Assembly: GCA_000092065.1 (NCBI GenBank)
Contig: CP000581.1
Length of the DNA stretch: 64,000 nucleotides
Reading direction: 5' to 3' (one strand)
DNA from: Ostreococcus lucimarinus
Taxonomy: Eukaryota
Under the pieces are notes generated by a model that saw nothing but the letters and a program-made list of their open reading frames with translations, was not told the origin of the DNA and searched no databases. Both the position numbers and the translations under genes were made by a program. The stretch's first letter is position 1; every line of letters starts with the position of its first letter. Positions 8,647-62,728 of this stretch are shown one piece after another.

Positions 8647-8803
8647 GTGCGCGAGACGACGGGCGAGGCGAGAGGGACGATTTGTTTTTTCGTCGTTGTT
8701 TGAAAATGAACAACAGCTCCGAGGCGCGAACGCGAACGCGAACGCGAACGAATGGTCGGCGCGAGACTGACGGTGCGGTGACGCGGGTTCGATGTGAACG
8801 CAG

Positions 8804-21907: not shown

Positions 21908-22333
21908 CTACGTCGGCCCGATCCGCCAAAACGCCCGCGCCTTCGCCTCCGCGCTCGCCGTCGCGCCTCGCGCGTCGTCCATCGACGCGCGTCTCGACGC
22001 CGCGTCCTCGTCGCCGCTCGCCCTCGGCTCGCGCGTCTCGTCGACGCTCGCGCGTCGTCGCCTCGCCTCCGCCGCCGCCGCCGCGAACACGTTCCCGGCG
22101 CAGTCCCCGTAGGGGTCCTCGCCGAGAAACGTGACGTCTTCGTCCGTCCACGACATCATCCATCGATCGGCGAACGTCGACGGCGCGCGCGACGCGTCGT
22201 CGGCGGCGTCGGCGGTCGATCCGCGCGGTGCTGACGCGGCGCGTCGGCGCGATGCGTCGGCGTCGTCGCGTCGCGTCGTCGTCGACGCGGGCCCGCGCGC
22301 GGAGTAGAGCTTGCTCGCGAGGTCGCGAAACAT
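21908..22333 (-). CDS. Hypothetical protein (weak)
   Basis: The ORF 22438 start is TTG; the first ATG is at 22333 (MFRDLASKLYS...DPYGDCAGNVF...). Low complexity in places and no domain. Confidence 0.2.
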   Translation of the reverse strand: MFRDLASKLYSARGPASTTTRRDDADASRRRAASAPRGSTADAADDASRAPSTFADRWMMSWTDEDVTFLGEDPYGDCAGNVFAAAAAEARRRRASVDETREPRASGDEDAASRRASMDDARGATASAEAKARAFWRIGPT

Positions 22334-22563
22334 CGAGGTTCGGTCGGCGCGCGCGTCGGACGTCGTCGTCGGCGCGCGCGTCGCGGTGTCGCGTCGGCGG
22401 TCGGGGTCGGTGCCGAGGCGTTCTTTTTGTATGCGCAAACAGTCAGACGACGCGTTTCCCGAGGCGCATCATCGCGCGCAGAGTCCCCCGCCGGCGCGAA
22501 TCGTCGCGACGCGGATTCGGCGCGTCGCGCGCGGCGCATCGCGACGCGCGCGTCGCGGTCGAG

Positions 22564-23376
22564 ATGTCGCGCGCGACGTCGCTCGCGCGCGCGATCGCGC
22601 CGCGGGCGCGCGCGCGCGACGCGACGCGACGGCGAACGGGCCGGGTCGCGGGACGCGACCGGCGTCGCGTGCGTCGCGCGGTCGTCGCGCGCGCGACGGG
22701 GGAGGACGCGACGCGTCGACGCGCGATCGACGCGAGCGATGCGAACGCGGTGGCGCGCGCGGCGGCGGCGCTGCGACGCGGCGGCGTGATCGCGGTGCCG
22801 ACGGATACGATTTATGGATTCGCGGCGAGCGCGGCGAACGGCGACGCGGTGCGGCGGTTGTACGAGATCAAGGGGCGACGCGCGGGCGTGCCGCTGGCGA
22901 TCGCGGTGGGAGACGTGCGCGACGTGGGGACGTACGGTGACGATGGACACCTGAGAGAGGGCGCGCTGGCGCGGTTGCTGCCGGGACCGACGACGGTTTT
23001 GTTGCGGCGACGGCGCGGCGACGCGGGACGCGCGACGCCCGAGTTGAATCCGGGGGTGGATTTGATCGGGATTCGCGTGCCGGCGCACGATTTCGTGCGC
23101 GAGGTGTGTCGCGCGCACGGCGGAGCGATCGCGCTGACGAGCGCGAATAGATCTGGGGAGACGAGCGCGACGGCGGCGGAGGAGTTCGCCGAGCTCTGGG
23201 ACGCGTGCGACGAAGTCTTCGACGGGGGGGCGATTCCGGCGAAGCGTTTAGGAAGCACGATCGTGGATTTGAGTTCGCGCGCGAATGATTTTGCCATCGT
23301 TCGCGCGGGCGAGCGCTGCGACGAGCTCGTTCGCGTGCTCGAGGGCGAGTTCGCGATGACGCGGCGAGACGCGTGA
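22564..23376 (+). CDS. YRDC: YrdC/Sua5-family threonylcarbamoyl-AMP synthase with Arg-rich, presequence-like N-terminus
   Basis: YrdC signatures GGVIAVPTDTIYGFAASAANGDAVRRLYEIKGR and IGIRVPAHDFVREV...ALTSANRSGE. Start taken at ATG 22564. The ORF-track 5' read-through is Arg-rich and not in an ATG context. Confidence 0.8.
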   Translation: MSRATSLARAIAPRARARDATRRRTGRVAGRDRRRVRRAVVARATGEDATRRRAIDASDANAVARAAAALRRGGVIAVPTDTIYGFAASAANGDAVRRLYEIKGRRAGVPLAIAVGDVRDVGTYGDDGHLREGALARLLPGPTTVLLRRRRGDAGRATPELNPGVDLIGIRVPAHDFVREVCRAHGGAIALTSANRSGETSATAAEEFAELWDACDEVFDGGAIPAKRLGSTIVDLSSRANDFAIVRAGERCDELVRVLEGEFAMTRRDA

Positions 23377-28900: not shown

Positions 28901-30148
28901 GACGCGCAAACAAGACACCATGAAATCGCGCAATAGCGTCGCCTCTGCAGCTCCAAGATCACTACCGAAGAATGCTTTCGCGAAACGCTCAAGCGTCGAG
29001 CGTGGGCAGTACATGACGCTTGCAAACACTTGTGCGAAATCCCAAAGCGTGAGCAGCTCTGCCTGCAGATGTGGGCCGATGTGCGAATACTCGGGAAGAA
29101 TCGGCGACGCGGGCGGCGGAGGCTCTAGTCTCGGCACTCGAGGCTTGCTTTCCGATTCCTTCTCGGCCTTCTTCTCAGCCCTCAACTTTTCGCGCCTGGC
29201 GCGATCACGCTCTAGTCGCGATGCCTTCGTCGCGGAACCCAGCTGGTGTTTCTCTGTCGTCCACGTTTGCAAAGCTGTCAAAAATTGCGGCGCCGGGACG
29301 TCGGCTTCTTCGCTCGCCGTCGGCGGTCGCAGCGCTTTACATCTCACCAAAGTCTCGATTTGAGACACGATGAAGAATCCATCACCAACGATGTCCGCGT
29401 GCGTGTACTTGTACGCGCTGGTATCCTTCGATTCGCGTATCTCCTCTTCCGTGCACCCGTTCAACGCGGCTTCCTTTTGCGCCTCCGCCGTGGTATCGCC
29501 CAACATCTTCGCCGCCTTCGTCGGCGTTTTCACCGCCACCGGTACATCATGCGCCACGACGGGCACACCAAGAATGATATCTAAGCCTTCCTCCAGCGAC
29601 AATTCCCAGTTCTTCACCAATGCTCGAACGATCGCGTTGGTGAAGTTTGCGCGACGCGTCGTAACTGTCACGTACTTTTCAAACCTCGGAGCCGGGTTCA
29701 ACAGCTTGTACCACGCCCGCGGCGTCACGAGCCACAACTCGGGCTCGTCTCCACCGTACTTAATCGTCCAATCGTGCACCTCCATGAGCTTTAACGCGTG
29801 CGGAGGTTTGTCCTGCGGCGTCAACGGCGCCGCCAAGACCTCGCTCGGCAACCCGTGCTCGCCGCCCTCCAACTTCCTCGCTCTTCCCAGCACGAGCACC
29901 CGGTTCGGTCTCGACCCGTGCACGCTCACCGCTTTACCCTCCGCGAACTTATCCCTGAATTCGTACTCATCCAGCACGCGCATCGGCAGCGTCTGTCCCT
30001 CGACCTCGGACGGCGCCGTCGCGTCCCTCGCCGCCGCCGCCGCCTCCGCCGCCGCGCCGTCGCCCTCGTCGCCCTCGCGCGTCGCTCCGCGCGTCGTATC
30101 GCGCGCGACGGCGTCCTCGTCGTCGACGTCCGCGCCCGCCGTCGCCAT
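25940..30148 (-). CDS. Chromatin protein with DDT domain, WHIM-like motifs and C-terminal ARID DNA-binding domain
   Basis: DDT-like block ELLTLWDFAQVFASVMYCPRSTLERFAKAFFG. WSD/WHIM-like RRYFALGGTNNAGRLFVE. ARID at the C-terminus (PIFCGAQMNLHRVFIEAMHLGGYEQVTRCKFWKVVARTLG...FAMRKYYEKCLFPLEKYL). Start taken at ATG 30148 (MATAGADVDDED...); the ORF's Arg-rich 5' read-through to 31063 is rejected. Confidence 0.75.
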   Translation of the reverse strand: MATAGADVDDEDAVARDTTRGATREGDEGDGAAAEAAAAARDATAPSEVEGQTLPMRVLDEYEFRDKFAEGKAVSVHGSRPNRVLVLGRARKLEGGEHGLPSEVLAAPLTPQDKPPHALKLMEVHDWTIKYGGDEPELWLVTPRAWYKLLNPAPRFEKYVTVTTRRANFTNAIVRALVKNWELSLEEGLDIILGVPVVAHDVPVAVKTPTKAAKMLGDTTAEAQKEAALNGCTEEEIRESKDTSAYKYTHADIVGDGFFIVSQIETLVRCKALRPPTASEEADVPAPQFLTALQTWTTEKHQLGSATKASRLERDRARREKLRAEKKAEKESESKPRVPRLEPPPPASPILPEYSHIGPHLQAELLTLWDFAQVFASVMYCPRSTLERFAKAFFGSDLGAAEATLLRDFMVSCLRVTEGRIDSIDQETIRSAPTRARWWDAPVLGLNDIGELDWQDRANNLIVEFQMGVNARMRKPALEAVAKLDKGEVLESFSPVHRIALAVALSSIALESETIREYFTEIYDDVRARRRTGDFHSNPPTLATEVPKPTEEKKKETSKEINVKDENPEVVDDADESVSMEVDETDASEELVKPPTLADYRREQLMKWKSEAVERAVISRGKPVAVDEQGRRYFALGGTNNAGRLFVETAPLGWYDGDEDAASSQVIDGVEYPKQPMAGPPVEDAPFSEDAANTPDCRRNVSGLVECASRWGVYTPGTVEYDALSYWCNPKYDNERYITKLHRLMSHAVDGDADAPELSDDDRRKKVEILSETLAMDGYANLDDVALGSVDDAKLTSRLFNAVKFILHSAPFWRTGDMRWIDRFIRTCTHFESALNASEQSLVRLLKVLPGIEIVCAQAGLMDDVAWPDAKPTWLAQLRYYVFGPRTEAELEGTTAAPEVSEPIPGINDILAAPELLDPLPPLTVRRAANLVNQFLRFLVQDPQRMSQGAFQMCTGVSHGVGAINTGEVVAVIKRGLVKTYNRYVDKKSRPRNWIDVNTLRPVERCVVLGTAYRGSEAPRRNAASDGDTPPCAWLMCLLLDDPELSQFPSTRRQSADAEQADAKEAKDERRLIIAPLYAGGDIAEYVLPWSKYQEVDEKPWDGGSRIIMHFEGVDAENEARGIVSVDGCVYYLGRVRKVRSSPDRWETVMVVFDSDPEDYMWVSPWEIIAAPEKYHDPVHEGPAPVDHERELSPEDMTLIAQCKAIARRLGWPSGDHRRDFDKFRAEAFAGGVIPQAPIFCGAQMNLHRVFIEAMHLGGYEQVTRCKFWKVVARTLGRDLSTQTSASFAMRKYYEKCLFPLEKYLTSAEMIENLGIVIDASTDPMDRFPASRPATDFDDDDDRVDDGDDDDDMDDEDDADGMDVVDKKKKEEDADDYKISDDDFDEDDPSDSGESDSDFKGR

Positions 30149-30370
30149 CGCGCGCGCGCGTCGCGCGCCGTCACCCGCCCGTCGTCGGTCGGTGCGGTGC
30201 GTTGAAGATCCGCGACCGCCGCCGCGCCGCCGCGCGCGCGCGATTCGCGTCGCGTCGCGCGCGTCGCGTCCGCGCCGGCGATTCGCGTCGCGCGTCGCGC
30301 CGCGTCGCGCCGCGTCGCCGTGCGCGCGCGGGTGTGCGCGCGCGTCGTCACATCTCGACTCGTCCCGTCG

Positions 30371-31783
30371 ATGACGCCGCGACGCCGCGTCGCGCGCGCG
30401 CTCGCGGACGCGCTCGCGGACGCGCGCGCGCGCGCGTCGCCCGCGCTCGAGCGCGCGGACGCCGCGCCGTCGCCGCGCGCGCGCGCGTCGCCGCGCGCGA
30501 CGACGACCGGTCGACGCTTCGCGACGGCGGCGCGAGACGACGGCGACGACGACGACCGGGCGCGGGCGACGACGGCGCGGACGACGGGAACGCCGTCGTA
30601 CGCGTTCGCGTCGGCGATGTCGCGCGCGACGTCGCTCGAGGACGCGGTGCGAGCGTGCGCGCGAGACGTCGCGCGAGGGCTCGGTCGAGGTCGGGACGCG
30701 ACGTGGGCGCAGTTGTTCGTCTGCGGTGACTACGACGAGGACGCGGTCGCGCGCGCGGGCAAGCTGACGCGTGAATTGCTCGGTGGAACGTCGGTGTCGC
30801 TCGTGGGAGCGGTGGTGCGAGGAGGGGTGGGCGCGGAGGGGATGACGGAGTCGGGCGTGGCGTTGACGGCGGCGGCGATGCCGGGGACGACGACGGCGAC
30901 GTTTCGAGCGACGAAATCGGCGCTTCCGGCGATCGACGACGGGAGCGCGTGCTCGTGGGTTGATTTGGCGAAGAGTTGCGAGAACGAGGGCGAGACCGTG
31001 GGGGTGACGGTGTTCGCGGATGCGTCGTTCGAGCACGTGGGCGAGCTGCTGACGCGCTTGCACGTGGCGATGCCGAACAGCGTCGCGCTAGGAGGGGTCG
31101 TGGACGAGGGGAGTCTCATGTTTTTGAACGATGACGTCGTGCGACGAGGAGCTGTCGCTTTGCTCATTCGTGGTGAGTTCGAATTGGACACGCACGTCGC
31201 GCACGGCGCGCGACCGGTGGGACCCGTGATGTCGTTGACTCACGCGCACGACAACGCGGTGTTGGAGCTCGACGATTCGCCCGCACATCCGCTGCTGTTG
31301 GAAACCCTCGAGCAGTTGCCAGAGAACTCTAAATCGCTGCCCGTCATGCTCGGACTCGGGGTGAGTGGCTCTAAAGGTCCGTTCGTGTGCCGCGATATTT
31401 TATCCGTGGGCGAAACCGGGGGCGTGGAAGTCGCGTCGATGGCTTTGCAAGAGGGCGACGTCGTACAATTACACGTGCGCGACGGGAACTGGGCGAAAGA
31501 GCACGCGAATCGCGTGATTGAAAAGTGTGCCGATAGTGCGAAAAAAGTGAGTAGTGAGGAGTTGGGGTCAGAGAACTCGACAGGTGCCATGATATTCGCG
31601 TGTGGCAACGGCAACCGAATGCACGCCAGCAATTTTCGCGAACGCGTTCCGGGGACGCCCCTCGGCGGCGCGTTCTTGCGCAGCGAAATCGCGCCCCTTG
31701 CAAAAGGTCGTGCGAGTAACGTGCTGTCACACACGAGCACGATAGGAATTTACCGTAAACGTAAGAAATCGGTGTCGATGTAA
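30371..31783 (+). CDS. FIST-domain protein (FIST_N and FIST_C-like sensory modules)
   Basis: The ORF 30320 start is GTG; the first ATG is at 30371. Motifs LFVCGDYDEDAV...LVGAVVRGGVG and C-terminal MIFACGNGNRMHASNF...GGAFLRSEIAP resemble the FIST_C signature (...yGEI.P). The assignment is tentative. Confidence 0.5.
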   Translation: MTPRRRVARALADALADARARASPALERADAAPSPRARASPRATTTGRRFATAARDDGDDDDRARATTARTTGTPSYAFASAMSRATSLEDAVRACARDVARGLGRGRDATWAQLFVCGDYDEDAVARAGKLTRELLGGTSVSLVGAVVRGGVGAEGMTESGVALTAAAMPGTTTATFRATKSALPAIDDGSACSWVDLAKSCENEGETVGVTVFADASFEHVGELLTRLHVAMPNSVALGGVVDEGSLMFLNDDVVRRGAVALLIRGEFELDTHVAHGARPVGPVMSLTHAHDNAVLELDDSPAHPLLLETLEQLPENSKSLPVMLGLGVSGSKGPFVCRDILSVGETGGVEVASMALQEGDVVQLHVRDGNWAKEHANRVIEKCADSAKKVSSEELGSENSTGAMIFACGNGNRMHASNFRERVPGTPLGGAFLRSEIAPLAKGRASNVLSHTSTIGIYRKRKKSVSM

Positions 31784-34223: not shown

Positions 34224-34782
<559 letters not shown>

Positions 34783-34823: not shown

Positions 34824-36911
<2,088 letters not shown>

Positions 36912-37115
36912 GGGTAGCTCAATTTTTGCGACGAACACAAACAAACACTCCGAACTTTAGTGATACATTCAATTTTTAATGAACGCAAGAAGATGACGAC
37001 GACTCCCACTCCCACTCCAATTATGTTTACATTTTCAAAAGCTAGGTCTACACCGCATCGGCGCTCGCGAGACAACGCTCGCGCGTCCGCGTCGGAAATC
37101 TTCTTTCCGAACCGC

Positions 37116-37965
37116 TTACTCCTTGGATTCAAGAGAACTCGCACCCGAGATAATCTCGATCAACTCGGTCGTAATCGCGGCTTGACGCGTACGGTTGTAA
37201 AGCAAAGTGAGCTTTTGAAGCATGTCACTCGCATTCTTACTCGAGTTCTCCATCGATTGCATGCGCGAGCCCAACTCAGACGTGTTGTTCTCCAACATGG
37301 CGTTGTACAACAACGCGCCCATCTTGAACTCGGAGAGATCGAGGAGGAACTCCGATCGGTCGGGTCCTTCGATTTCATAAGAATCAAACTCATTCACACC
37401 CTCTTCCGCCGCCTTCTCGAGCTCTTCGCTGGACAAGACAGTCGCAACCGTAGGCTTGAAGGAAATCGCAGAGGCGAAGCGGTTGAACACCAGCTGTGTC
37501 TTCGGCGCGTTTTGCGCCATAATCTCGTCAGCGATCGCGGAAGCGGTTCCAAAAGTTAACGGCTGCTTCGTCGTGTCCACAACGACGTTGTTGATTCGAT
37601 CCGGGTAAAGCCTGTTGAGCTGCGCTCGCGCCTTGTCGCCGACGACGTTGATTCTCGCCCCCGGACTCATCGCGTTCAAAACGGTCGAGTACTTAACCAC
37701 GGCGGTGTTAATACCACCACACAAACCCTTATCGGACGAGATCGGCACGACGAGCGTGCTGTCCGTTTCAGTCCCCGGGGTATCCCCGAGCAAACGCACG
37801 AACGGATTCACGAGCGCGCGCGACTTCTCGCACTTCGTTTGCGCCCCCTTGAGGCGAGACGCGGCGACCATCTTCATCGCCTTCGTAATCTTTTGAATAT
37901 TCCCGACCGATCGCATTCGAATCGCCACCGCTTGCAAAGAGACGGTCCTCACGTTCGCCGGCACC
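37116..37965 (-). CDS. ATPC: Mitochondrial F1-ATP synthase gamma subunit, exon 2
   Basis: RMRSVGNIQKITKAMKMVAASRLKGAQ...LTLLYNRTRQAAITTELIEIISGA is the canonical gamma subunit. The ORF-track M at 37964 is a GTG. Minus-strand ACTGAC at 38001-37996 and cgtag acceptor at 37968-37966 show that an intron ends here. Confidence 0.8.
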
Positions 37966-38176
37966 CTACGTTCGTTTCGCGCATCCGCGCACCACCGTCA
38001 GTCGTCGTCCTTCGCGCCGACCTCCAGGTCCCAGACCCCGATCGCGCCGACTTCAAAGGTCCGTCCCTCGTCGCGTCCCGATCGCGTTTTCGCGCGTCCG
38101 CGCCCATCATCGCGCGCGCACATATATCCCCCGCCATCTCGCGTTCGCTCGCGCGCATCGCGTCGCTCGCGCGCAC

Positions 38177-38313
38177 CCTTCGCTCGCGTTGACCATCGTC
38201 CCCGCGCGCGGCGCCGTCGTCGATTTCGGCGTCATCATCGTCCCTCGCGCGCCCTCGCGCATGGCGCATCGCACCGCGAGCGCGGCGTTTCGACGCATCG
38301 CATTCGTGGACAT
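38177..38313 (-). CDS. ATPC: Mitochondrial F1-ATP synthase gamma subunit, exon 1 (presequence); start could instead be the internal ATG at 38196
   Basis: ATG codons at 38313 and 38196 are in frame. The exon ends ...AGC GAA GG|GTGCGC (donor at 38176). Joining to exon 2 gives ...MVNASEG-VPANVRTVSLQAVAIRMRSVGNIQKI, an Arg-rich presequence followed by the mature N-terminus. Intron 37966-38176 is 211 bp. Confidence 0.5.
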
Positions 38314-38711
38314 CGTGCGCGCGATCGTTCGCGCGCGGCGTGCGGTCGTGCGCGCGACTGTGCGGCGTCGCGCGCGCGCGCGAACGATCGCGACGCGCTG
38401 GGTTTACGTCGCGCGCGGTTCGTCGCGCGGTACACGGGGCTCGAGGTGCGCCGAATACGGGGCGCGACACATCACGACGCGCGCGCGTCCGGTTCGCGCG
38501 CGACGCGGCCTCGCGCGCGCGCGACGCGCGACGCGCGACGCGCGATCGTCGGTTCGCGCGCGCCGGCCTCGCGCGGCGCGCGCGCGCTCGAGGACGTCGG
38601 ACGCGGGGCGCGCGCGCGGTGCGGGGCGCGGATTGACTGATTGGACGCGATCGAACGCGGTCGCGCGAGCGACGCGCGCGCGAACGAACGCGAGGGCGCG
38701 CGCGCGAGACC

Positions 38712-41579
38712 ATGGTGCACGCGAACGCGCGAGGGGCGATGCACGAGGCGGTCGTGCGCGCGGTGCACGGGTTCAAGGGAGGGATGGCGGCGGCGGCGGC
38801 GGCGGGGCGAGACGCGGCGGCGCGCGCGGCGAAGGGGCTCGCGCGCGATGAGGACGTGATGAGCGTGAAAGAGGTCGTGGCTTACTTGAATATGGTGATG
38901 TTTCCGAGGCAGAGCGAGGAGGATGTGTTTTGCGCGCGTCCGGGGTTTGTGATGATGTACGATTTGACGCCGTTGAAGCGCGCGGCGCCGACGACGAAGA
39001 AGCCGCCGGCGAGCAAGTTTGAGGGAGATAATGGTCGCGTGAAAGTTGATCGAGGGCCTTCGGCATCCGCGAGTGGGGCGTCGACGGACGGTGGGGATCG
39101 GAGTGCGGCGCCGGCGCCGTCTGGGGCGGTGACGGCGCCGCGCGCCACGGCGACGAGCGGCGCCACGATTTCGCCGCACATGGAAAAGCTCGAGTTGGCG
39201 CTTCAGGAGACGATGGATAGCGCTTTGCTCGCAGAAGAAGCGCAGTCAAAACTAGAAGCACTGTTGGCGAAAGAACAGAAGTTACAGAGCGAGTTGGCCG
39301 CGACAAAGGTTCCACAGGTAAAGCTCGACTTTTCTGACATGCCGAGCTTCGAACTGGACGCTGAGGCGAGGGAATACAAGGGAGATCCCGACGACAGACG
39401 AGAAATTTTAGCGCATAGGAAGCGAATTGAGAAGGAAAGCGACCGTTTGGCGGTCGCCAAAGAAAAATGGATCGCGGGTAGAAGGAAGGAGGCGAAGCAG
39501 GCGGCGAAAGTACAAGCGAATGCGACGAGGAACGTGAAGCTGAGTGCTCTCAGAGGAGAAATCGCGCAGGCGAAAAAGGCAGTGCAGCAAACATTTTCCG
39601 TGGCGACTTCTCACGCGAAAAAGTTAGAGCGCCTTCGTTCGAGAGCAACTGCAGCACAGCAGCATGAAGCCGAGCTGGCGAGCAGAAAGAGAGAAGCTGA
39701 AGCCTACCGTGCGCAGCAGCAGCAGGAACGAGCGGCGAAAAAGTCAAAGATTCAGCTCGAACGCGAAGCTCAGAAGTTACAAGACGCCGAACGCAAACTC
39801 AAAGAGGCGGAGCAGCGAGCCAAAGTGAGAGCAGAGGCGGCTCGCTACCCTATGGATGATAACGAGCTCGTCGCATACGACGCGGCGCAAGCGAAAGAAC
39901 AAAATCGCGACCCTTGGCCCGCCGTCGCGAACGGGACGGCGTGGAAGCCATCCGCGGTAGATGTCTCGCAGATGCAAATTTGCGAATTCTTTAGCACATT
40001 TGGACGTATTCTAAAACCGAGCGTGGACGAATTCGGGGTAGAGTACCTGAACACTATTCTGGATGATTCCGACTTGACAAAACTTTCGAAGTTGTACGTA
40101 TCCTTGCTTCGAGTGGCCGTGACGACGACGACGTACGGAATCGAGGCCCTCGTGAAGACGTGGTCGGACGCTTTGGAGTTTAGTGGTACTTTCCCTGAAA
40201 TCATGAAGCAATTTGCCAAGGAAAAGAGCCGGGTTGGACAGATCGATGCCGTTACGCTGAGTACGATTAACGCGCTCACAGAGAAGCGAATAGGCATGTT
40301 CACGCCTGAGGAGCACACGCGCGTGCTCGATTGGTTGTGTGGTGAATGTTTTGAGGCGCCGGAAGTCAACAAAGAAGTCAATCGACGCGTAAAGGCGCTT
40401 GAAGATTTGTCGAAGGAAAAAGAGAGTGATAAGGCGATCGAAAATGCATTCGAGAAAGAGTACAAGAAACTTGCGCCACAATTACGCGATGCGAACGCGC
40501 TCGTCAAAAATGCATCCGACGAGCTCATCCAAAAAGTTCAGGCTCACGAAGCTTTGATAACTCTACCGCAGTCTGACGTCGAAGTGCCAACCGAGTTGCA
40601 ATCTGATGTTCGCGCATTCCTTGAGGCGCGATCGCTTCTCAAAGAGACGGAGGCGAAAAAGAATGAAATAGCGGCCCAGGCTGCTAAACGTCGTCGACAG
40701 TTTCAAGAAGAACGCATTCGATCGAATTGTTTGGGTCAAGACCGCAACGGCACGAAGTATTACTGGAATCTATCGTATAGCTCGGGCGCATTGCTTGCTA
40801 TCCATGTCGATGGTACCTGGTCAAAACTTACTACAGAGCAGCAGCTACGTGAATGGAGCAAATCCTTGAACACAAAAGGTATTCGTGAGCATCGACTACA
40901 CAAGAACGTAGCTGAGATTCGCGCCGAACTCGTCGCCGCGTTTAGGCAGGCTGAATTGGAAGCCATGAACGCCTTCCCAAAGTCGAGTCAGCGAACGAAA
41001 GTTGAGAGATGGAACGAAATCGCTGCGCGAGAGACACTTTCGATGGAAGGTGCGAAGAGGATCATCCAACTGTTAATGGCTGATGTGGTAAATTGCGAGG
41101 TATCCGCGCCCGACGGCACCATGTCTGGATGGAGAATCTGGGGCAGAGAGTTGGAGAAAACCACAGAGCTTACTGAGATGATACGATACTTGATGCAAAT
41201 CGAGGAGGCAATGGTCGAAATGTGCGATCTCCCTAGAGACGTTACCGCGAAGGATGCGAACGGTTCGGCGATCAACGCATCGAACGAGCGTCTCATGGCG
41301 AGCCACGAGTGGTGGGAGCTTATCATTCCGTCGGATGAGAAGAAGGCGGGAAAACGGCTGTGGCGCACAAATCAAGAGCGCGCCATCTGGCAAGAGGCCA
41401 TGTCCACATCTGACACGTATGCACGCATTGCTTACGGCGCCGCAATGCTGGAATCGTATTCTAGACCACTTTTTGAATTTCTCGAGAACATCAAGAAGAG
41501 AGCGAAACGCGAATCCAGTCGATTCGCCGATTACACATCATACGACGATGGCTATGATTCTTACGGACAACGCACGTAA
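38712..41579 (+). CDS. DDT-domain / WHIM-motif chromatin protein (BAZ/RLT/DDP-like accessory subunit of ISWI-type remodellers)
   Basis: ATG at 38712. DDT-like block VSQMQICEFFSTFGRILKPSVDEFGVEYLNTILDDSDLTKLSKLYVSLLR. Long coiled-coil region. WHIM2-type motif RIRSNCLGQDRNGTKYYWNLSYSSGALLAIHVDGTW. Confidence 0.65.
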   Translation: MVHANARGAMHEAVVRAVHGFKGGMAAAAAAGRDAAARAAKGLARDEDVMSVKEVVAYLNMVMFPRQSEEDVFCARPGFVMMYDLTPLKRAAPTTKKPPASKFEGDNGRVKVDRGPSASASGASTDGGDRSAAPAPSGAVTAPRATATSGATISPHMEKLELALQETMDSALLAEEAQSKLEALLAKEQKLQSELAATKVPQVKLDFSDMPSFELDAEAREYKGDPDDRREILAHRKRIEKESDRLAVAKEKWIAGRRKEAKQAAKVQANATRNVKLSALRGEIAQAKKAVQQTFSVATSHAKKLERLRSRATAAQQHEAELASRKREAEAYRAQQQQERAAKKSKIQLEREAQKLQDAERKLKEAEQRAKVRAEAARYPMDDNELVAYDAAQAKEQNRDPWPAVANGTAWKPSAVDVSQMQICEFFSTFGRILKPSVDEFGVEYLNTILDDSDLTKLSKLYVSLLRVAVTTTTYGIEALVKTWSDALEFSGTFPEIMKQFAKEKSRVGQIDAVTLSTINALTEKRIGMFTPEEHTRVLDWLCGECFEAPEVNKEVNRRVKALEDLSKEKESDKAIENAFEKEYKKLAPQLRDANALVKNASDELIQKVQAHEALITLPQSDVEVPTELQSDVRAFLEARSLLKETEAKKNEIAAQAAKRRRQFQEERIRSNCLGQDRNGTKYYWNLSYSSGALLAIHVDGTWSKLTTEQQLREWSKSLNTKGIREHRLHKNVAEIRAELVAAFRQAELEAMNAFPKSSQRTKVERWNEIAARETLSMEGAKRIIQLLMADVVNCEVSAPDGTMSGWRIWGRELEKTTELTEMIRYLMQIEEAMVEMCDLPRDVTAKDANGSAINASNERLMASHEWWELIIPSDEKKAGKRLWRTNQERAIWQEAMSTSDTYARIAYGAAMLESYSRPLFEFLENIKKRAKRESSRFADYTSYDDGYDSYGQRT

Positions 41580-62665: not shown

Positions 62666-62728
62666 CTGCGCGCGCGCCACCGCGTCGTCGTCAGTCTGCG
62701 CGCTCGCGCGCGCGCCGACGTTTAAACT

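Follow-up and report, generated by a model that had tools for sequence, protein, structure and literature searches.

A two-exon nuclear gene for the mitochondrial F1Fo ATP synthase gamma subunit of Ostreococcus lucimarinus and its truncated GTG-start versions in metagenome catalogues

The 64,000-nucleotide stretch of DNA analysed here (the window) carries on its minus strand what we regard, with a probability of about 0.97, as a nuclear two-exon gene for the mitochondrial F1Fo ATP synthase gamma subunit of Ostreococcus lucimarinus or a near-identical strain. Its transcript starts at about 38361 and ends at about 37001 of the minus strand, one canonical 211-nt phase-2 GT-AG intron (38176..37966) is spliced out, and translation begins at the first AUG of the mRNA, at 38313. 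Exon 1 would encode only residues 1-46 of a presequence that is about 53 residues long, carries positive charge and is probably amphipathic, and exon 2 would supply its last seven residues together with the complete mature subunit. Following import, the matrix processing peptidase would most likely cut beside Arg52, at about T53/V54, leaving a gamma N-terminus homologous to the ATLK... start of the bovine and yeast proteins.

Direct reading of the minus strand located the elements of this gene. A 282-codon ORF (37964..37116) opens with GTG at 37964-37962. The AG of the splice acceptor lies at 37967-37966 in the context cgtag/G, and the heptamer ACTGACG at 38002-37996 is separated from the GTG by 31 nt and provides, at 37998, a branch A that precedes the intron end by 32 nt. 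Further upstream, the GT of a donor is found at 38176-38175 in the context GAAGG/GTGCGC, and its reading frame contains both the ATG at 38313 and the one at 38196. The original prediction had named the GTG, the motif 31 nt upstream of it, the cgtag/G acceptor, the GG/GTGCGC donor and both ATGs, and each of them was found in place on the minus strand. When the frame of ATG 38313 was followed upstream, an in-frame stop was met 31 codons away, and no start codon was found before that ATG in its minus-strand frame. Joining 38313..38177 to 37965..37116 takes out a 211-nt phase-2 GT-AG intron and leaves a CDS of 987 nt for 328 aa, the junction of which reads ...MVNASEG-VPANVRTVSLQAVAIRMRSVGNIQKI (...MVNASEG-VPANVRTVSLQ...), exactly as had been predicted from the splice. 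The features of the gene are as follows.

38314..38361, minus strand: 5' UTR of 48 nt without upstream AUG (cDNA contigs L006-L009)
38177..38313, minus strand: coding part of exon 1, 137 nt, residues 1-45 and two bases of Gly46, putative presequence only (cDNAs; N-terminus of XP_001415896.1)
38194..38196, minus strand: internal Met40, the second ATG candidate, not the start (TGG in L004 and L010; not the first AUG)
37966..38176, minus strand: spliceosomal intron, 211 nt, GTGCGC...CGTAG, phase 2, 69% GC, single copy (absent from L006-L009, present in genomic L003)
37996..38002, minus strand: branch-site motif ACTGACG with branch A 37998 (same heptamer in the CDC48 introns; CTGAC in orthologues)
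37962..37964, minus strand: GTG, the codon of Val47, not an initiator (non-start codons in orthologues; internal to the spliced cDNA ORF)
37116..37965, minus strand: coding part of exon 2, comprising the final base of Gly46, residues 47-53, all of mature gamma (from about V54 on) and TAA at 37118-37116 (ORF, PF00231)
37941..37949, minus strand: predicted cleavage region R52-T53/V54 (invariant Arg; alignment with mature bovine and yeast chains)
37001..37115, minus strand: 3' UTR, about 115 nt; poly(A) site near 37001-37003 (ends of L006-L008)

The intron has the make-up of a U2-type GT-AG intron, with GT at its 5' end, AG at its 3' end and a CTRAY-type branch motif shortly upstream of the AG. 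Between 38313 and 37966, the GT at 38176 is the sole one from which an open frame leads into the acceptor at 37965, the trivial AT/GT within the start codon aside. The splice model goes beyond chance, because 38176 is the only non-trivial, in-frame and stop-free GT donor for this acceptor. Two GT[GA]CG sites, at 38121 and 38274, were tried as donors and rejected, since both break the frame. With the intron retained, translation from ATG 38313 ends after 68 aa, inside the intron. The splice signals also match the local consensus, because the same ones are used by the introns of the convergent CDC48/p97 gene. That gene lies on the plus strand in three exons (34224-34323, 34436-34662 and 34824-36911) encoding 804 aa, and the first 200 residues of its spliced product align without gaps to Arabidopsis CDC48A over both junctions (6hd3_A, 2e-104). 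Its two introns, of 112 and 161 nt, read GTGCGT...ACTGACG...YAG, with ACTGACG 29 and 38 nt before the acceptor.

The splice is documented by four independently assembled, spliced cDNA contigs from four samples, L006 from Logan ERR1711966 and L007-L009 from the JGI samples 3300019032, 3300019009 and 3300018913. They were reached through a protein cluster, one member of which, P0133 (346 aa), is encoded on all four of these short contigs by an ORF that runs unbroken across the 5' UTR, exon 1 and exon 2. Alignment to the window demonstrated that each contig matches 38361..38177 and then 37965..~37001, with exactly 38176..37966 (211 nt) missing, and the cDNA junction reads ...GCGAGCGAAGG/GGTGCCGGCGAAC (GAAGG/GGTGCC). 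Compared with the spliced model, 1148 of 1150 positions are equal. The two differences, 37943 G>A (V54I) and 37761 C>G (D>E), are both present in the genomic contig L003, which carries the intron. Since the variants are the same as in genomic L003, the cDNAs can be assigned to a natural strain about 99.8% identical to the window; the contigs represent environmental samples of that strain and not the sequenced culture. The original prediction had pointed to transcript support for the 37966-38176 intron as the way to check it. The four contigs supply this support with the junction exactly as proposed, and neither of the outcomes that had been named as contradicting it was seen among them: no unspliced transcript began near 37964, and no other upstream exon was used.

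The ends of the transcript were read from the same contigs. All four begin with ACATGGGG, followed by window sequence from 38361. The piece ACATGGGG looks like an adapter remnant of template switching; the SMART template-switch oligo has ACATGGG at its 3' end. Run ERR1711966 and the JGI samples presumably belong to the Tara Oceans metatranscriptome project. The low-input eukaryotic metatranscriptomes of Tara Oceans were prepared with an oligo(dT)/SMART (SMART_dT) protocol, with the result that cDNA inserts begin with adapter sequence (PMC5538240). At the other end, L006 closes with ...GGGAGTC AT followed by 16 A residues, and L007 and L008 carry shorter A runs at the same place (37001-37003). 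Because of the 5' adapter remnant at 38361 and the 3' A runs, L006-L009 behave as full-length cDNAs, with a 5' end at about 38361, a 48-nt 5' UTR without AUG and a 3' UTR of about 115 nt. An exact search of metagenome_contigs with the 26-nt exon-exon junction gave 0 matches, and metatranscriptome records presumably lie outside that collection. No intron-retaining cDNA was present among the contigs found, a set of assembled contigs from which minor unspliced or alternatively initiated isoforms could escape. Public metatranscriptome assemblies can thus give cDNA-level proof of the splice, the 5' end and the poly(A) site for a locus of an uncultured strain.

Translation starts at ATG 38313, and the GTG at 37964 is an ordinary Val47 codon. 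ATG 38313 is the first AUG of the mRNA, as the cDNAs start at 38361 with no AUG in between. The orthologues in contigs L004 (88% protein identity) and L010 (86%) start MSSNAMRR... and MSGNALRR..., respectively, at the ATG that corresponds to 38313, and an MS.N..RR N-terminus is conserved among the orthologues in the Mamiellales alignment. Other Mamiellales proteins, transcript-derived or deposited, start MSGNGLRRTAALL, MASNGFQRTSALL, MTTRGFRRSVALL or MSKRVFRDSISLL, and all of them align with the 38313 start. The choice between 38313 and 38196 had originally been left to an orthologue alignment, which favours 38313 by the conserved MS.N..RR and by the codon at the position of ATG 38196, which is TGG in L004 and L010. 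Use of ATG 38196 with the same intron would give a 289-aa precursor (MVNASEG...), and this ATG does lie in frame within exon 1. We consider such a start very improbable, since in the mRNA it is preceded by 38313 and four in-frame AUGs (Met6, Met18, Met26 and Met27), the methionine is absent from the two orthologues, a Met40 start would leave 14 residues of net charge 0 before V54, and the conserved MS.N..RR.A... N-terminus of the Mamiellales transcripts aligns to 38313 and not to 38196.

The annotation of the GTG as the initial Met, as described in the original prediction, holds for the ORF lister and for prokaryotic callers; it does not hold for the public reference protein, which starts MSTNAM. 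GTG 37964 looks like a start because it is the first start-type codon after the in-frame stop inside the intron, and bacterial gene finders cannot join exons. What a protein search retrieved were mainly metagenome gene calls limited to exon 2, the best of them 99% identical. The 90% cluster that holds the gene (cluster 1) has 137 members, most of those listed being 251-278 aa long and coming from JGI, ENA, Tara and Logan metagenome assemblies, and the truncated calls start with GTG, ATG or TTG at or just after the acceptor or inside the intron. Entries of this kind, and the models that the ORF lister and prokaryote-style callers yield, are what speaks for a single-exon gene starting at GTG 37964 on an unspliced mRNA, with a 282-aa product and no upstream exon. 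The chance that this is the true gene is negligible: the four cDNAs begin 397 nt further upstream of the GTG and are spliced, the reference annotation is the two-exon model, the codon is GTA in L004, GTT in L010 and GCT in L011, none of them a start codon, and a start only 7 residues before the mature N-terminus leaves no targeting peptide. Moreover, nuclear genes of eukaryotes do not as a rule initiate at non-AUG codons. The truncated GTG-start model is an artefact, limited to metagenome catalogues that rely on prokaryotic gene callers. In these catalogues, picoeukaryote genes whose 5' exon is short are reduced to presequence-less proteins with a GTG start, and more than 100 such entries cluster here. 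The long CDC48 ORF opens with GTG too (34833), in the same pattern as gamma, and metagenome callers split CDC48 in L003 into a separate CDC48_N ORF and a main ORF.

The spliced translation and XP_001415896.1 of O. lucimarinus CCE9901 agree at 328 of 328 aa, including the poorly conserved N-terminal 53 residues. Since the product is identical over its whole length, the gene and its exon structure are the same as those deposited. The same protein is deposited as ABO94188.1, UniProt A4RRG5 and UniRef100_A4RRG5, under the names 'F-ATPase family transporter: protons (mitochondrial)' and ATP synthase subunit gamma, mitochondrial. Both the two-exon structure and the start at 38313 are therefore already public in RefSeq and UniProt, and the gene is an ordinary one with nothing new to it. 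The PF00231 profile scores 236.1 bits (gathering cut-off 39.9), with residues 55-324 covering profile positions 1-285 of 285. Among chains of solved structure, mitochondrial gamma subunits come closest, from Polytomella (7e-85) and from bovine and yeast (1e-40 to 1e-46), whereas chloroplast gamma chains (3e-24 and 6e-21) and bacterial ones (about 1e-21 to 1e-25) match more weakly. By these profile and chain matches, the product is an F-type ATP synthase gamma subunit, nearer to the mitochondrial chains than to the chloroplast or bacterial ones.

Outside PF00231, the protein carries an N-terminal extension of 53 residues, which we infer to be a mitochondrial targeting presequence. Among residues 1-53 there are 7 Arg and 1 Lys against 2 Glu and no Asp, a net charge of +6, as well as 10 Ala and 10 Ser/Thr. 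The helical hydrophobic moment over 18 residues peaks at 0.59 at residues 8-25; in the mature part it averages 0.22 and does not exceed 0.50. V54 is the position at which the mature bovine (2jdi_G) and yeast (2hld_G) chains begin when aligned. R52, two residues ahead of (V/I)SLQ, is invariant in 13 of 13 aligned Mamiellales sequences. Under the R-2/R-3 rule of the matrix processing peptidase, an Arg precedes the mature N-terminus, and cleavage near T53/V54 fits this rule because of the invariant R52 two residues upstream. The most likely cleavage site is thus predicted at about T53/V54. With this site, exon 1 would encode targeting peptide only, and exon 2 seven more presequence residues followed by the whole mature subunit. 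The Arg-rich presequence joined to a conserved mature N-terminus, as the original prediction had it, fits these data, with PF00231 beginning at residue 55 and mature bovine and yeast residue 1 at V54.

We then compared the intron across Mamiellales. A phase-2 intron with a GT[GA]CG donor is present in the corresponding position, 8-9 codons ahead of (V/I)SLQ, in the Ostreococcus-like loci L004, L010, L011 and L012, in Bathycoccus prasinos (L013), in L014 and in Micromonas commoda CP001574.1 (L015). The phase is 2 in 8/8 loci examined, and the intron length ranges from 172 to 349 nt. The four Ostreococcus-like loci keep the exon 1 ORF (MS.N..RR...), the GT[GA]CG donor and the YAG acceptor, with introns of 222-298 nt. 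Exon 1 of L004 and of L010 measures 137 nt, that of L011 and L012 131-134 nt, and the phase is 2 in each case. CTGAC occurs 28-33 nt before the acceptor in L004, L010, L011, L012 and L014. When the same splice rule is applied to L013 and L014, the predicted proteins are exactly P0145 and P0020, known from deposited or transcript sequences, and the M. commoda intron was located by comparing genomic CP001574.1 (L015) with the cDNA L016. In L015, an apparent second intron of about 81 nt was noticed at about 1164-1244, in the region of the mature protein; the Ostreococcus gene has none there. Nucleotide identity of the window to L004, L010, L011 and L012 amounts to 74-80% in exon 2, 58-75% in exon 1, 50-64% in the intron and 52-62% in the upstream 200 nt. 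This is the pattern that would be expected of a weakly constrained presequence exon beside a neutral intron.

Introner-like elements, which are repeated near-identical introns, are known from Micromonas. An origin of the gamma intron from such a repeat element was rejected, as BLAST against the 64-kb window returned only the intron itself and CG-rich matches of 36-45 nt. Also rejected was the reading of contigs L001 and L002 (P0009, 72% identity) as an intron-less genome, for L002 has an rRNA-like 5' fusion and the related genomic contig L012 has the intron. They are most likely metatranscriptome assemblies of spliced mRNA. In positions 1-90 of L002, a fragment (...CATTAGCATGGAATAATAAGATAGGACC...), presumably of 18S rRNA, is fused to the 5' end of the spliced gamma mRNA of the related species, which makes this contig a chimeric metatranscriptome assembly. 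P0009 was called from an internal ATG, and its ORF reaches 13 codons further up (MSSNGFRRSTTRL).

The intron position has been kept since before Ostreococcus, Bathycoccus and Micromonas split. We can suggest only tentatively, and rather doubt, that the intron might be needed for high expression or export of an abundant mRNA and does not persist by inertia. Retention of O. lucimarinus introns in relation to expression is an idea put forward earlier (PMC2367439). Deep conservation of the presequence intron in very compact genomes is compatible with this idea and is no evidence for it. Another reading, in which the two-exon mRNA gives the main product and the intron is nevertheless regulatory, either by retention leading to the 68-aa dead-end ORF or by enhancing expression or export, seems to us quite unlikely. 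It could draw on the position and phase common to the three genera, on the enrichment of introns in highly expressed genes of O. lucimarinus (PMC2367439), and on the presence of the intron in L003, though that contig looks genomic. However, none of the cDNAs found retains the intron, an old intron can be conserved without having a function, and the intron sequence is poorly conserved relative to exon 2 (50-64% against 74-80% nucleotide identity). A standard two-exon gene with a canonical intron remains the preferred reading.

Several observations were made on the surroundings of the gene. The stops of gamma and CDC48 are 204 nt apart (36911-37116), and the gamma poly(A) site at about 37001 lies about 90 nt from the CDC48 stop; the two 3' UTRs may abut or overlap. 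In L001, from a relative, gamma and CDC48 are joined in one contig. On the other side, a divergent 955-aa ORF with a WSD domain (PF15613) starts at ATG 38712 on the plus strand, about 350 nt (38362-38711) of 70-75% GC from the gamma 5' end, and this interval is presumably a bidirectional promoter shared by gamma and the WSD gene. The WSD-gene/gamma pair is kept in L012 and in Bathycoccus L013, whereas the CDC48 neighbour is kept only in Ostreococcus-like contigs. The heptamer ACTGACG occurs 16 times in the window on both strands, typically 17-38 nt before a YAG and downstream of a GT[GA]CG, for example at 8767, 57770 and 63154 on the plus strand and at 62694, 43624, 17415 and 2959 on the minus strand. 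By their sequence context, these further sites likely mark more introns in the window. Non-coding DNA (introns and spacers) has 70-78% GC compared with 50-56% in coding DNA (for example 38001-39000, 30001-31000 and 22001-23000), the opposite of the usual pattern, and consists mostly of low-complexity sequence of the CGCG type, in which imperfect inverted repeats are numerous. Neither the Rfam nor the tRNA scan of the 64-kb window gave a match.

Compared with its deposited counterpart A4RRG5/XP_001415896.1, the gene product shows no difference at the protein level, and the environmental cDNAs of the species carry V54I and one D->E. The catalogue proteins P0001, P0126, P0128, P0121 and others stem from the same DNA, with exon 2 99-100% identical, and lack the presequence. 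The proteins of Bathycoccus prasinos (CAL6337774.1, P0145) and Micromonas commoda (XP_002507248.1, P0135) and the MMETSP transcript product P0020 share with it the PF00231 gamma domain, an extension of 35-55 residues at the N-terminus that begins MS/MA..(F/L/M)R, the invariant Arg before (V/I)SLQ and a phase-2 GTGCG-type intron 8-9 codons before the mature N-terminus. They differ from it in sequence (62-71% identity), in exon 1 (80-122 nt) and in intron length (172-349 nt), and the Bathycoccus gene is without the CTGAC motif near the acceptor. Yeast Atp3 (2hld_G), bovine ATP5F1C (2jdi_G) and Polytomella gamma (6rd4_S) are homologous to it end to end in the mature domain, and their mature N-terminus follows a processing site of the R-2/R-3 type, whereas their presequences are unrelated in sequence and their gene structures differ.
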